Positions 3,694-7,458 of a stretch of DNA of 24,725 nucleotides are shown one piece after another; positions within the stretch are counted from its first letter, which is position 1, and the number at the start of each line of letters is the position of its first letter. The notes beneath the pieces are model-generated. The model searched no databases and was not told the origin of the DNA. It was given only the letters and a program-made list of their open reading frames with translations. Source of the DNA: Candidatus Micrarchaeaceae archaeon. Its GTDB lineage: Archaea > Micrarchaeota > Micrarchaeia > Micrarchaeales > CABMGC01. The position numbers were made by a program, and so were the translations under genes. The stretch spans positions 1-24,725 of the forward strand of contig JAVYWZ010000011.1 of assembly GCA_038877255.1 (NCBI GenBank), given 5' to 3'.

Positions 3694-4080
3694 TCATGGT
3701 TTAAGCAAAACAATATGCAAAGGCTCTATTTTTAATACGACCCTGTTGCCATGCTGTCTGTAGTTCATGCCTATGTATTTTTGCGCAAGCTTGTCTATAT
3801 GCTCCTCGGCGCCTTCTTTTATAACTTCTACCACCTTTCCCCTGATGAAAAGGGCGTCGTAAGGATCGTTCATATCAAACACACTAATTGCTACGCGCGG
3901 GTCTCTAACTACATTTTTATACTTCACCCTGTCGTTTGTTGTATTTATCAATATGTAATCGCCATCTCTGTCCACCCACGTGACTGCTATGTGTGGCGAA
4001 CCGTCGCGCATAAGCGTAGCTATATTTGCAAAATTTTTGCCATCAATGAGCTTCTTTGCTTTGTCAGGTAGCGCCATCAT
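3694..4080 (-). CDS. PPOX-class (pyridoxamine 5'-phosphate oxidase-like) F420/FMN-binding split-barrel oxidoreductase
   Basis: ATLMRDGSPH...W...K.KNVVRDPRVAISV...HIDKLAQKY...RVVLKIEP pattern. Start at ATG 4080 or 4077 after AGGTAA; own TATA-like TTATAAA about 45 bp upstream. Confidence 0.85.
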   Translation of the reverse strand: MMALPDKAKKLIDGKNFANIATLMRDGSPHIAVTWVDRDGDYILINTTNDRVKYKNVVRDPRVAISVFDMNDPYDALFIRGKVVEVIKEGAEEHIDKLAQKYIGMNYRQHGNRVVLKIEPLHIVLLKP

Positions 4081-4169
4081 GATATTACCTACACTGTATA
4101 GCATATTTAGTAGAAAAATTTATAATGCAACTGCTAACCGATTTTGTATATGCAAAAGCAAAGTAACAA

Positions 4170-4244
4170 GTTTCATCGGGCGGCTTTCGCCGCCCGCAGC
4201 AGCTTTCGCTGCCCATTTCTGGGTGATGCCGGCCTTCCCGGCAA
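4170..4244 (-). ncRNA. Candidate novel structured small RNA (about 75-90 nt)
   Basis: Minus strand reads GCCGG-GAAGG-CCGGC, CAUC-A-[CCCA-GAAA-UGGG][CAGC-GAAA-GCUG]CUGC[GGGCGGC-GAAA-GCCGCCC]-GAUG, i.e. three GAAA tetraloops closed by CAUC/GAUG. TATAAAT at 4269-4263 lies about 27 nt upstream of G4242, and a U-rich tract follows. Confidence 0.7.
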
Positions 4245-4262
4245 TACTATTAGAGTATTAAG

Positions 4263-4309
4263 ATTTATATTCTTTTACTTTGCTACAAGAAACATAGCAA
4301 GATATAAAT
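4263..4309. promoter_or_regulatory. Back-to-back TATA boxes with central inverted repeat TTGCTA-N9-TAGCAA
   Basis: TATAAAT on minus (4269-4263) and on plus (4303-4309), each preceded by purine-rich BRE-like bases; inverted repeat arms 4280-4285 and 4295-4300. Confidence 0.6.
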
Positions 4310-4399
4310 ATTTTACTAAAGTAAAATAATCAGGAAAAGCGAAGCCAGCGCTATACAAAATGGCCAGCAGCAATTGCTGTTCTATTTCTGGGTGATACC

Positions 4400-4729
4400 G
4401 TGGAAGAACAACGTAAACGCGAGCTGAAAGAAGCTTTGTTAGGCAGGCAGGCACAGTTGGACAACGAACAGGAATTTATACAAGAAGAACTTGAAGAAAG
4501 CCAGCAAACAGTTGAAAGTGAAGAAGCGAAAAACCACTACGCAAGCGAAAAAGAAGAATTGCTTGACATTGCTAAAAACACAGAGCGGCTAAGGGCAAAA
4601 AACGAGAAAAGGAATGTGGAGAAGGTAGTGCACAGTTACCTATACAGAAAAACCGGCCCAAAGACATGGTATGAAATAGTGGTATATACGAATGCAAGAG
4701 GAGCAGTCTGCCAGGTAATAAAGCATTGA
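4400..4729 (+). CDS. Hypothetical 109-aa protein, acidic coiled-coil N-terminus and basic/aromatic C-terminal beta-rich segment
   Basis: GTG start 4 nt after GGGTGA SD, own TATA box, downstream hairpin; E/Q/K-rich helical sequence. No family recognised. Confidence 0.7.
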   Translation: MEEQRKRELKEALLGRQAQLDNEQEFIQEELEESQQTVESEEAKNHYASEKEELLDIAKNTERLRAKNEKRNVEKVVHSYLYRKTGPKTWYEIVVYTNARGAVCQVIKH

Positions 4730-4731
4730 TT

Positions 4732-4751
4732 GAGGCGGCGCATGCCGCCTC
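4732..4751. terminator. GC-rich hairpin GAGGCGGC-GCAT-GCCGCCTC between convergent genes
   Basis: 8-bp perfect stem 2 nt after the stop codon of 4400-4729 and just before the end of the convergent transcarbamylase gene. Confidence 0.55.
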
Positions 4752-4783
4752 TCGGCTCGCACTTCCACGGTATTATGCTCGTT

Positions 4784-5797
4784 TCAGGCAAGCAGCGCGA
4801 GCAGCGCAGCCCTTACATAAAGCAGGTTTTCTGCCTGGTCGTATATCACGCTGCGGGCACTATCCATAACTTCATTATCTGCCTCTTGGCCACGGAACAC
4901 TGGAAGCACGTGCGTTATTATCGCATTACTGCTCATTCTGTCTACAAGCTTCTGGGTGAGGCGCCAATCCTTGTATTGCTCATGAAGCTTTACTTCGTTG
5001 TCGGAGCCGAACCTGTTCATGCCCGAAGTCACACATGCATGGCTGGCCCAGCTCCTTGGAAATACTACATCAGCGCCATCTAACGCTGAGCCCATGTCGT
5101 GCATTATTTCGAGCTCTGTTCCGGCTGCTTCTGCATTGGCCCTTGCCTGATCAACAATCCTTTCATCAAGATCGAAGCCTTGAGGGTAAGCCAAAACGAC
5201 ATGCATACCAAACTTGCTTGCAATTAGCATCTCGTCTTGCACGCTGCCCCAGCTCCTTACATGATTGCTGTAGGCCCAGCTTATCACATATTTTTTGTTC
5301 TTGTAATTGCCTTGCAGTTTTTCGTCGATAGTAAGCATGTCCGCAATTGCTTGCGTAGGATGGTACATATCGTCTGCCATGTTAATGACAGGAATATTGG
5401 CGTGCTTTGCGTACTCGCGTATCAACGCATCTCCAGCCCCATAAACATAATCAACTGCTTCTTCGAGAATGCGTATGCCGAGCACGTGGCCCAAACGCTC
5501 ATACATGTGCGCAGTATCTGCAATGCTCTCGCCTTCAGAGCCGCGCGTAGTCTTGAAATCTATGAATTGGGCATGGCCGCCAAGAAGCGTTGCCGCAGAT
5601 TCGAAGCTTGATCTTGTTCTCGTACTCGTATTGTAAAAGAGCATGAACATTGTCTTGTTCTTGAAAAGCTCAGGCACATTGCCAAGGTATTTCATGCGCT
5701 TTATCTCCTTTGCAGATTCTATTACAAATTTGAGCTCTTCAAGGCTCCAATCCTGAGTTGAAATAAGATCCTTTCCAGAAATGTTTATTGCGGACAT
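4784..5797 (-). CDS. Transcarbamylase (OTCase/ATCase superfamily), resembling the knotted YgeW/ArgF'-like group; substrate uncertain
   Basis: STRTRSSFE carbamoyl-phosphate motif, HPTQAIAD, ISWAYS, ADVVFPRSW, HVLP (HCLP equivalent). Start at ATG 5797. Confidence 0.85.
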   Translation of the reverse strand: MSAINISGKDLISTQDWSLEELKFVIESAKEIKRMKYLGNVPELFKNKTMFMLFYNTSTRTRSSFESAATLLGGHAQFIDFKTTRGSEGESIADTAHMYERLGHVLGIRILEEAVDYVYGAGDALIREYAKHANIPVINMADDMYHPTQAIADMLTIDEKLQGNYKNKKYVISWAYSNHVRSWGSVQDEMLIASKFGMHVVLAYPQGFDLDERIVDQARANAEAAGTELEIMHDMGSALDGADVVFPRSWASHACVTSGMNRFGSDNEVKLHEQYKDWRLTQKLVDRMSSNAIITHVLPVFRGQEADNEVMDSARSVIYDQAENLLYVRAALLALLA

Positions 5798-5865
5798 TTT
5801 GTCACAGAAATAATTGCACAATAAGCAATAAGATTCTTGCAGCTGGCTCGTTTTTGGGTGGTATT

Positions 5866-7458
5866 TTGAAAAACGAAATAGTGATTGGAAATGTTGTAAA
5901 AGAGCTTAAACTGTGCAGAGGGATTTTTGACCGCAGGCTAAGGTGGCGCTGGAAGCGAAGGCATATGCTAAAGCTGAAGATAAGCCCAAGCAATGCAATG
6001 AATAGAAACATTGTAATAACAGGGCAGACAGGCACAGGCAAAAGCAGCGCGTGCAAAACCATAGTTAAGGGCCTTGCTTCACTTGGCTATTCTCTTTTGA
6101 TTCTCGACTTCCACAATGAATACATAGGCCTTGCAGGCGAGATAGGCGTGAAGGTATATGATGCAGACATGCTGCAGATGGACATTATGCAGCAAGATGG
6201 CAGTAATGAGGAAAAGGCTGCAGACGTTGCAGAGACTTTGAGAAAAATACTGAAGCTTGGCTACAGGCAGTACAACGAACTATATAAACTCGCATTGTAC
6301 ACTTATTCTGTTTGCGAAAGAACAGGAAAAGAGCCGAGCATTGCCCAGCTGCTTTACTCGCTTGCCGTGTTTAGCAAAAACGCAAAGGGGACAGAGGCAA
6401 ATATACTTGATGTGCTAAAGACAAGGCTTGTGCTGCTTGCGCACAAAACAAATGCGGTTCATGTTGATTTTGAAAAGACAATAGAGACAGGCGCTGTGTT
6501 CGCGCTTGCAGGAATGCACAACAATGAGACACAGACGGCATTCGCAGAATCGTTCATAAGGCGCTTGTACCAGCAAGTTCTGAGGAAAAGGCCAAGTAAG
6601 AATATCTACCTTGTTGTAGAAGAGGCAGGCAAGCTGCAAAACAGCGTTACGCTTGATAGGCTTATTGCAGAAGGCAGGAAGTATGGCGTTGGCATAATAG
6701 CAATAGCGCAGCGCGCAAAGGCAATAAGCAGCGAGATAAGGAGCAACGCAGAGCTTTTCATTGCCTTTTATCAGAGAGAGCCTGAGGAGCTTAATTACTT
6801 GACAAACATGCTTGCAGCAGGAAACGAGCTAGAACGCTTCATAGAAGTAAAGAAGGCGCTTAGGAGCCTGCAAAGGGGCACTGCGCTCGTACTTAGGAAT
6901 GGCAACATAGAGATGGCAAGGTTCAACACCACTACGACAAGGCAAAACTGGGAATACACAATAATGCATATTTCAAAGAAGCCAATAAGCAGAGAAGAAT
7001 TGCTTGATAAGTTAAGTCAATGTAGAGAAACAGAGGAGCTTATAGCCCAGAAGCTTGCAAGTAGGGAAATTAGCGAATACAGGATAAATAATGGTATATA
7101 CGCAGGCTTGTACTACATCGCAACGTCTTCTTTAAGGAACAGCGCAGAGCACGACATAATGCTAGAGCTCATAGCAAAGCACATAAGGAGCAAGGGAATA
7201 AGCTGCAAGGTGCTGAACAGGGCATACGCTCCTGACATAGTGGCTTACGAGAATGGCAAAGAAGTAGCAATAGAATATGAGACAGGCAAGAAGCAACTTG
7301 ATGACACAAAGCAGATGCTGGAAAAGAGAAAAGGCAATTATGCGAAGACAATAGTAATTGTAAACAACAGCGCCTTAGAGCGCTACAAAGCGCTAGAAAA
7401 TGGCAATATAAAAGTTATTTCTGAAAAGGAATTCTTTGAAAATCAGCAGCCCCTATAA
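5866..7458 (+). CDS. HerA/FtsK-family (DUF87) ATPase with C-terminal PD-(D/E)xK nuclease-like domain
   Basis: Walker A GQTGTGKS, ILDFHNEY, Walker B LVVEEA, EGRKYGVGIIAIAQR; C-terminal SAEH...APDIVAY...VAIEYETG. TTG start at 5866 after GGTGG SD; the ORF-track start 5788 overlaps the divergent gene. Confidence 0.85.
   Translation: MKNEIVIGNVVKELKLCRGIFDRRLRWRWKRRHMLKLKISPSNAMNRNIVITGQTGTGKSSACKTIVKGLASLGYSLLILDFHNEYIGLAGEIGVKVYDADMLQMDIMQQDGSNEEKAADVAETLRKILKLGYRQYNELYKLALYTYSVCERTGKEPSIAQLLYSLAVFSKNAKGTEANILDVLKTRLVLLAHKTNAVHVDFEKTIETGAVFALAGMHNNETQTAFAESFIRRLYQQVLRKRPSKNIYLVVEEAGKLQNSVTLDRLIAEGRKYGVGIIAIAQRAKAISSEIRSNAELFIAFYQREPEELNYLTNMLAAGNELERFIEVKKALRSLQRGTALVLRNGNIEMARFNTTTTRQNWEYTIMHISKKPISREELLDKLSQCRETEELIAQKLASREISEYRINNGIYAGLYYIATSSLRNSAEHDIMLELIAKHIRSKGISCKVLNRAYAPDIVAYENGKEVAIEYETGKKQLDDTKQMLEKRKGNYAKTIVIVNNSALERYKALENGNIKVISEKEFFENQQPL

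Follow-up and report, generated by a model that had tools for sequence, protein, structure and literature searches.

A small RNA that pairs with a target messenger RNA (mRNA) and prevents its translation is a defining component of toxin-antitoxin systems of type I. The enterobacterial loci tisB/istR-1, zorO/orzO, shoB/ohsC, and dinQ/agrB are divergent examples; the toxins they encode are small membrane peptides of hydrophobic character, and IstR-1 occupies a standby site for ribosomes that lies far upstream. In type I systems, free translation of the protein harms the cell that makes it, and the antitoxin RNA is labile and the toxin mRNA is stable. A typical type I toxin is a hydrophobic peptide of under ~60 amino acids (aa) with a membrane helix, SymE and RalR being soluble exceptions; SymE, of ~110 aa, has an AbrB-like fold and is SOS-induced, and SymR overlaps symE in cis. 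In hok/sok of plasmid R1 and its chromosomal relatives, the 3' end of the mRNA locks the 5' initiation region, and antisense control is added to this lock; Sok is read from the other strand of the DNA that encodes its target, to which it is complementary throughout, and it works through RNase III and the overlapping mok frame. The genomes of DPANN archaea are tiny and hold few recognizable regulators, and experimental genetics is almost lacking for these organisms. The hok/sok family and symE/symR are among the systems named in one preprint (bioRxiv 10.1101/2025.10.28.685009). According to one article, only three phyla, all bacterial, are known to have type I systems (PMC12390103), and the text of a further preprint states that none has yet been discovered in Archaea (bioRxiv 10.64898/2026.06.17.732947). 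Methanosarcina mazei sRNA162 is described as an archaeal trans-acting small RNA that masks a ribosome-binding site (PMC3510493). In this study, we analyzed a 24,725-nucleotide (nt) stretch of DNA from a Candidatus Micrarchaeaceae archaeon (hereafter the window), in which a putative small RNA gene on the minus strand stands back to back with a gene for a small protein on the plus strand.

Judged from its conservation, this locus is a self-contained regulatory module of Micrarchaeota (DPANN archaea), and it points to a dedicated RNA off-switch of a kind so far undescribed for this archaeal group. We regard it as likely that a dedicated, divergent antisense small RNA covers the ribosome-binding site of its neighbor and that a self-lock of the mRNA accompanies it in some branches of the lineage. 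In silico support for antisense translational control is good: the two sequences that would pair co-vary between genomes, their differences are biased toward those that keep G-U pairs, stable tetraloops are confined to the minus strand, the upstream TATA box on that strand keeps a fixed distance, and the neighbor's leader is the best target in the genome. A preliminary description of this DNA had proposed the same core reading, a minus-strand RNA antisense to the neighbor's ribosome-binding site, and these observations uphold it.

The direct repeat and its co-variation

The basis of the proposed pairing is a degenerate direct repeat, which the preliminary description had located correctly. Its two copies are 80% identical in their first part (repeat family D2, 4197-4211 vs 4365-4379) and 94% identical in their second (D3, 4215-4231 vs 4384-4400), and their alignment contains 29 matches, the three C-to-T differences pointed out earlier, one G-to-A difference, two transversions, and one gap. 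Local alignment of 4140-4260 with 4330-4415 gave a score of 41, which was reached by 0/2000 shuffled leaders (mean 15.1, maximum 26) and by 0/3340 other windows of the genome (maximum 37). The 13-mer shared by 4215-4227 and 4384-4396 has no other occurrence in the genome (713 kb, 30 contigs); a dispersed element was rejected as an explanation because the repeat is a single-locus feature. Copy 2 was said to comprise the Shine-Dalgarno sequence and the start of the open reading frame (ORF) at 4400, and it does: a GTG start codon lies at 4400, just 3' of GGGTGAT (4390-4396), and GGTGAT is complementary to ATCACC in the 3' tail of the 16S rRNA of the same genome, which was located with the Rfam SSU model. 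This complementarity indicates that the ribosome-binding site is genuine.

A DNA search (E<1e-4) showed that window bases 4177-4429 are kept at 68-79% identity in 13/40 related genomes, whereas the interior of the ORF cannot be aligned as DNA among these 40. The loci from this search, 7 further stretches, and the module-bearing loci from a promoter-pattern DNA scan together made up 24 modules; the scan returned 110 loci, mostly chance AT-rich matches in bacteria, and 17 of them held a module. The repeat sequence drifts between genomes, and both copies do so alike, with, for example, ATTTCT, GTTTCT, CTGCTTCT, or CTACTTTT in both. For the comparison of copy 1 with copy 2 we used 21 modules, omitting two near-duplicates and one module (G046) whose copy 1 lies outside the stretch used. 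This comparison gave 409 matches, 29 C>T, 13 A>G, 2 T>C, 6 G>A, 24 transversions, and 16 gap positions, and the transversions were mostly within hairpin loops. C>T and A>G changes are compatible with pairing because G-U pairs persist when the minus-strand copy-1 RNA meets plus-strand copy 2, whereas T>C and G>A are incompatible because A-C mismatches would result. Compatible transitions thus outnumbered incompatible ones by 42 to 8; per module, 16 leaned toward the compatible kind, 1 leaned the other way, and 4 were tied. Because C>T and A>G shift the GC content in opposite ways, the directional bias is not a plain GC effect.

A covariance model (R1), built from 20 minus-strand RNA sequences, provided a second set of 20 loci that were picked by this model alone. 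For 18/20 of these loci, the stretch most like the RNA region in the 300 nt that follow was a leader with a ribosome-binding site and a start codon at its end, and the two exceptions were a tandem second RNA copy (G148) and a promoter repeat (G121). These R1-only loci showed 23 C>T and 8 A>G against 5 T>C and 3 G>A (31 vs 8).

The same counts bear on a reading in which the repeats act as DNA, either as two transcription-factor operators around the divergent promoter or as remains of a promoter duplication that gene conversion keeps alike. The copies flank the promoter region in direct orientation, and this region has repeated TATA-plus-palindrome units. The TATA box with its palindrome (4302-4326) is the most conserved DNA of the module and occurs once in its own genome; the pattern TTTAC-N4-GTAAA is strongly conserved and operator-like, being kept in nearly all modules across genera, and the palindrome may itself be an operator for a conserved regulator. 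However, a protein-binding site should hold one consensus, whereas the repeat drifts and its copies change together. Neither DNA binding nor gene conversion predicts a directional excess in the two sets of loci, and the repeat extends into covarying hairpin stems with GNRA loops on one strand only. We consider it very improbable that the repeats act as DNA.

The putative minus-strand small RNA and its target

Model R1 matched 4166-4249 on the minus strand of the window at an E value of 1.1e-19. Small-RNA hairpins A and B covary, with 92.5% of cells paired, 7/12 pairs compensatory, and a covariation score that was reached by 0/500 shuffles. Of the 51 hairpin loops 3' of the single-stranded core, 27 were GNRA and 2 were UNCG in the minus-strand reading, whereas the plus-strand reading gave such a loop in 1/51 (4 modules were unparsable). 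In 18/41 modules, the minus strand has a TATA-like octamer, preceded by a purine-rich stretch, whose start lies 43-49 nt upstream of the core; of the other 23, 7 were mis-anchored, 15 were missed by the regular expression, and 1 had no core. The earlier claim of GAAA loops, a minus-strand TATA box, and a U tract was right on the loops and the TATA box, but the U tract is merely a weak T-rich stretch (4176->4151). The small RNA matches no Rfam 15 family, as the window gave 0 matches at the gathering score and the best match was at chance level (E at least 2.5), and there was no tRNA match in the module region. Hairpin A followed by AUCACC (4228-4242 with 4222-4227, minus strand) resembles the last hairpin and anti-ribosome-site tail of the 16S rRNA of the same genome (C9:14520-14552), a likeness that may simply follow from the fact that both pair with the same site. 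The 16S rRNA match in this genome (C9:12577-14552, L157) is 1976 nt long against the 1478 positions of the model and holds an insertion of ~500 nt, perhaps an intron.

Cofolding of the minus-strand RNA (4243->4166) with the leader (4332-4415) predicted 29 intermolecular pairs, including 3 G-U pairs, between 4227->4197 and 4365-4396, with a gain of -23.2 kcal/mol over the two monomers and with hairpins A and B2 retained. The preliminary description had put the number of pairs at ~32. With the RNA's own template excluded, the leader of ORF 4400 ranked first among 47,464 windows of the whole genome, as anticipated in the preliminary description, with a value of -52.4 against -44.1 for the next window (mean -20.1, standard deviation 5.2). 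Between genomes, cognate RNA-leader duplexes had a mean of -64.5 kcal/mol, whereas non-cognate duplexes had a mean of -53.2 kcal/mol (0/20,000 permutations), and the proposed orientation of RNA and leader was more stable than the reverse in 13/13. Two leaders, L022 (G023) and L107, have two small-RNA target motifs each, one upstream and one at the ribosome-binding site.

The predicted target mRNA, its protein, and the module

The 5' leader of the mRNA has a conserved element of its own, which is probably an H-type pseudoknot. Family-wide, an invariant GCG...CGC (helix S1) is interleaved with a second helix (S2, 4-5 base pairs), the two being separated by the conserved loop UAUACAAAA. S2 covaries, its 5' strand taking 29 different forms in 40 modules, and in the same modules the pair flanking GCG/CGC is A-U in 22, U-A in 3, U-G in 4, and unpaired in 11. 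The covariation of S2 implies that the leader is transcribed, that selection acts on it as RNA, and that the mRNA is not leaderless; the preliminary description had named a leaderless ORF 4400 mRNA as a result that would speak against its proposal. The leader has no Rfam match and is like preQ1-I and other small pseudoknot riboswitches presumably in shape only: a preQ1-I-like riboswitch was considered and rejected, as a search with 81 nt gave no match to that riboswitch family even at E values up to 10 and the junction loop L2 is variable. Also rejected was a conserved upstream mini-ORF at 4360-4395 (11 codons, ATG...TGA, ending 4 nt before the GTG), which is absent in G004.

At its other end, the mRNA is predicted to fold back on its own start. 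Bases 4762-4773 are perfectly complementary over 12 nt to 4395-4406, a segment that takes in the start codon along with the 3' half of the ribosome-binding site. Folding of 4332-4780 placed a stem of 4392-4406 with 4762-4776, containing G-U pairs, in both the minimum free energy (MFE) and centroid structures (z -3.99), and 4752-4760 paired with codons 7-9 (4417-4425) in both structures. Equivalent fold-backs with unrelated sequences were found in G004 (11 nt), G024 (13), G046 (18), G011 (13), G019 (10), G016 (9), G023 (9), G062 (11), G035 (11), G034 (14), and G091 (9). In shuffle tests of nine modules (G000, G004, G024, G046, G011, G019, G062, G035, and G034), 0 shuffles reached the observed length in 8/9, and 3/300 did so in G019. 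The fold-back is absent from branches with a closely following downstream gene. We set aside the idea that the 5'-3' stem forms a bulge-helix-bulge splice site, since its helix is continuous.

The site of the small RNA and the fold-back stem share 5 nt (4392-4396), so the two interactions are mutually exclusive. This overlap would suit a small RNA that activates or stabilizes its target, whose pairing at 4365-4396 would compete with the fold-back (4392-4406/4762-4776) and open the mRNA, or would shield it from decay. However, the entire ribosome-binding site lies within the duplex and would be closed to a ribosome as long as the small RNA is paired, and approximately two-thirds of the modules have no clear fold-back and still keep the small RNA. 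We accordingly give an activating role little credence.

The start context of the protein gene is conserved, and its product is a hydrophilic protein with a grand average of hydropathy (GRAVY) of -1.14 and an isoelectric point (pI) of 5.7. AlphaFold2 predicted a helix at residues 2-81 and a beta-hairpin at 91-98/101-108 (predicted local distance difference test score 86.6, predicted template modeling score 0.40); in this model the long helix is amphipathic, and there is no predicted membrane helix. With the protein as the only query, no clear homologue was found in 60 relatives (best E 2.7e-4, an unrelated 612-aa frame), and the relatives of the protein were found via the conserved DNA instead. 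They range from 82 to 157 aa and share a family core consisting of a helical region and the motif WYE..VY....G..YQ..H. A profile of 10 members found just 29 cluster representatives among 1.84 billion proteins, two of which are read-through fusions to endonuclease IV. In the pair G005/G003, codon differences were synonymous in 18 cases and non-synonymous in 7, and the changes at the three codon positions numbered 5/3/21 (21/29 at the third position), which indicates that the ORF is coding. By contrast, the 157-aa ORF of the G016 group, compared with that of L052, had no coding signature (12 synonymous, 25 non-synonymous) and no WYE motif, and the protein of the G016 branch is uncertain. No family or known-fold match was obtained in Pfam, NCBIfam, PADLOC, PHROGs, PDB sequences, or, using Foldseek, PDB structures (best E 1.4), and the ESM Atlas gave no neighbor, its best score of 0.76 being below the useful range. 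The gene had been called an orphan, which no longer applies, since it belongs to this small family and stands beside the RNA in all but one of the ~44 loci inspected.

Model R1 found the RNA in 72/151 genomes of the order, a tally that takes in one unpublished genome (G085): 62/75 in the family of the window, 0/1 in a second family (f2), and 9/74 in a third (f3). The RNA is mostly present in a single copy per genome, with two loci each in G009 and G123. In G148 (L137), tandem small-RNA copies were observed at C9:6892-6959 and 7047-7110, identical at 55/55 aligned bases, in a locus that is partly N-masked. The single-copy, family-wide pattern looks more like that of a vertically inherited, tightly regulated core gene than that of a selfish toxin-antitoxin cassette.

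This pattern bears on whether the locus is a true type I toxin-antitoxin pair, in which the free protein would be harmful, the small RNA would be the antitoxin, and the fold-back would maintain, as hok/sok does, a reserve of mRNA that is stable but inert. The architecture agrees with such a pair, as the RNA is divergent and non-overlapping, is complementary to the leader via a direct repeat, and is predicted to occlude the ribosome-binding site; the fold-back of the mRNA 3' end on the start codon strengthens the likeness to hok/sok-type loci. The occasional extra copies noted above (G148, G009, and G123) and the fast evolution of the protein between conserved RNA flanks would also fit. However, the protein is hydrophilic and without a predicted membrane helix, it matches no toxin, defense, or phage family, and the module, mostly single copy in 62/75 family genomes and beside the same HtpX gene within the genus, looks vertical rather than selfish. 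We consider a true type I pair unlikely. It is equally doubtful that the locus represents the first type I toxin-antitoxin system of Archaea, in which antisense RNA and fold-back would form a hok/sok-like double lock on a toxin of a new, soluble kind and which an entire DPANN family would have inherited vertically.

The anatomy is uniform across the 24 modules (Table 1 gives the coordinates in the window). In the orientation of the window, one or two GC hairpins are followed by copy 1, then a hairpin, two TATA boxes in succession, and the palindrome TTTAC-N4-GTAAA; then come the leader, a hairpin, copy 2 with the ribosome-binding site, the start codon 4-8 nt further on, the small ORF, and a GC hairpin. 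Within the genus, the module adjoins the same HtpX gene. Between genera, the flanking genes vary, with HtpX, EamA-type, metallo-beta-lactamase-fold, and other genes upstream and endonuclease IV, HerA-like, GGDEF-like, and other genes downstream. Since the flanks differ while the module persists, the conserved unit is the RNA region plus the ORF. The titles of public records in which the module occurs read Candidatus Micrarchaeota archaeon or uncultured archaeon.

Table 1. Features of the module and its bordering genes in the window. Positions written with an arrow run in the direction of the minus strand.
Feature	Position	Strand	Remarks
PNPOx-family gene	3694-4104	minus	borders the module region (4105-4783) on the low-coordinate side
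Putative small RNA gene, ~90 nt	~4154-4243	minus	both ends predicted
T-rich tail of small RNA	4176->4151	minus	weak stretch
Terminal GC hairpin B2 of small RNA	4195->4178	minus	GAAA loop 4188->4185
Hairpin B1 of small RNA	4212->4199	minus	GAAA loop 4207->4204
Single-stranded anti-leader/anti-Shine-Dalgarno core of small RNA	4227->4213	minus	
Hairpin A of small RNA	4242->4228	minus	
Repeat copy 1	4197-4231	+	minus-strand reading is the small-RNA part complementary to the mRNA leader
TATA-like octamer for small RNA, ATATAAAT	4263-4270 (4270->4263)	minus	preceded by a purine-rich stretch like a B recognition element
TATA box for mRNA, ATATAAAT	4302-4309	+	
Perfect palindrome TTTTAC-TAAA-GTAAAA	4311-4326	+	between the mRNA TATA box and the predicted start site
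Probable H-type pseudoknot in 5' leader	4338-4364	+	
Pseudoknot helix S1	4338-4341 with 4349-4352	+	AGCG with CGCT
Pseudoknot helix S2	4344-4347 with 4361-4364	+	GCCA with TGGC
Conserved A-rich loop of pseudoknot, ATACAAAA	4353-4360	+	
Repeat copy 2, mRNA target site	4365-4400	+	leader hairpin 4365-4379, U-rich linker, ribosome-binding site GGGTGAT 4390-4396, first base of GTG start
Gene for 109-aa soluble protein	4400-4729	+	long helix and C-terminal beta-hairpin; motif WYE..VY....G...Q..KH
GC hairpin, GAGGCGGC-GCAT-GCCGCCTC	4732-4751	+	shortly after the stop codon; kept, with a compensatory change, in G004
3' fold-back segment	4752-4776	+	inverted repeat I6
Carbamoyltransferase gene	4784-5821	minus	borders the module region (4105-4783) on the high-coordinate side

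Several observations concern the surroundings of the module. A gene for a HerA/DUF87-type ATPase lies near it in the window (5788-7458), and genes of this type stand immediately downstream of the module in two further genera (L015, L083), which makes this a recurring neighbor. One branch (L014, L045, L082; P0015, P0028) has the endonuclease IV gene directly after the small ORF, fused with it in frame in some gene calls. The genome of the window also holds six near-identical copies of a ~70-nt sequence (contigs C2, C4, C7, C8, C9, C29), consisting of a TATA box (GCATATAAATTTTGAGA...) and then ...ATGATCGTCATGA, which may be a repeated promoter-plus-start unit or a small element.

Proposed mechanism and comparison with known systems

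In the mechanism that we propose, two back-to-back archaeal promoters would give rise to two transcripts. The minus strand would yield a structured RNA of ~90 nt, made up of a hairpin, a single strand of 15-20 nt, and one or two GC hairpins with GNRA loops, and the plus strand would yield the mRNA of the small soluble helix-plus-beta-hairpin protein. Pairing with the leader, from the 3' half of the leader hairpin through GGGUGAU, would involve the single strand of the RNA and also the 5' half of the hairpin that follows it, and would hide the ribosome-binding site and thereby block translation initiation. Here and in approximately one-third of 33 modules, the full-length mRNA would in addition be self-locked by the segment after the 3' GC hairpin, which would lie on the start codon.

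A number of points count against this proposal. The 42 vs 8 excess corresponds to a binomial p of ~1e-6, which overstates independence, because the genomes are related and the counts inflate the number of independent events; the 21 modules do contain 8 incompatible transitions and 24 transversions, and gene conversion between the copies could add to their likeness. The fold-back is strong in only 12/33 modules (8/14 plus 4/19), about one-third. Neither folding energy, which is better for the minus than for the plus strand in 10/22 modules, nor the modeled hairpins, with 5 G-U against 7 A-C cells (an A-C cell being a G-U pair on the other strand), tells the strands apart. Approximately half of the modules have a plus-strand gene that ends just before the terminal GC hairpin, and this hairpin may also serve that upstream gene, for example, as its terminator. 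Production of both RNAs, as well as the ends of the transcripts, is deduced from the DNA, and repression is the predicted outcome of the pairing rather than activation.

The points on strand would be accommodated if copy 1 acted on the plus strand, either as the terminator or 3' end of the upstream gene or as a decoy ribosome-binding site for a ribosome or an RNA-binding protein. Such a role is compatible with the MFE (10/22) and G-U (5 vs 7) strand tests and with the plus-strand genes that stop a few bases before the terminal GC hairpin; moreover, the hairpin with its U-rich tract resembles a plus-strand terminator, and the equivalent site at 4365-4379 was flagged as one. However, the upstream gene lies on the other strand in the window and in at least 8 other modules, where no plus-strand transcript would be expected, and stable tetraloops are far more frequent on the minus strand (29/51) than on the plus strand (1/51). 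A decoy would not be expected to give more C>T and A>G than T>C and G>A, and the TATA box is at a fixed distance on the minus strand. Action of copy 1 on the plus strand is thus quite improbable in our view, and we retain the divergent antisense RNA as the likely explanation.

The locus is an RNA regulator with its target that was defined purely by co-variation, and its register, strand, promoters, and fold-back are predicted with enough precision for testing. A small RNA family, a probable pseudoknot leader, and a small protein family, all of them new, come with it, and the same architecture is present in most of the family genomes searched. In the literature searched, supplements aside, no regulatory small RNA and no such module is described for Micrarchaeota or other DPANN archaea. 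If the protein is toxic, type I toxin-antitoxin systems would extend to Archaea; if it is not, the RNA architecture called type I would also serve to ration an ordinary protein. With regard to the usual marks of type I systems, pairing of the RNA with its target mRNA so as to prevent translation is predicted in silico, and the product is not a small hydrophobic membrane peptide.

Compared with tisB/istR-1-type loci, the module has the same arrangement of an RNA gene that is back to back with its target and does not overlap it, a short direct repeat that provides the complementarity, and pairing with the leader that is predicted to block translation. It differs in that the ribosome-binding site itself is covered, in its soluble protein of 82-157 aa, in its TATA-box promoters, and in its occurrence in a DPANN archaeon. 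In common with hok/sok, the 3' end of the mRNA is predicted to pair with the translation-initiation region at its 5' end (12 nt, perfect). Unlike in hok/sok, the RNA gene (4154-4243) is separate from the mRNA (from ~4332), complementarity is partial and includes G-U pairs, no coupling ORF is conserved (that at 4360-4395 is missing from G004), and the fold-back occurs in only part of the lineage. As in symE/symR, an antisense RNA would mask the ribosome-binding site and the start for a protein that is soluble and has ~110 aa; the RNA gene here does not overlap its target, however, and the protein has no detectable relative of known fold. The RNA would resemble sRNA162 in being a small RNA of an archaeon whose pairing partner is the 5' region of an mRNA. 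Whereas that kind of RNA is from a euryarchaeon, was found by transcriptomics, and acts on remote targets, the present one would form a dedicated pair with its neighbor, is predicted from sequence alone, and co-varies with its target in dozens of DPANN genomes.

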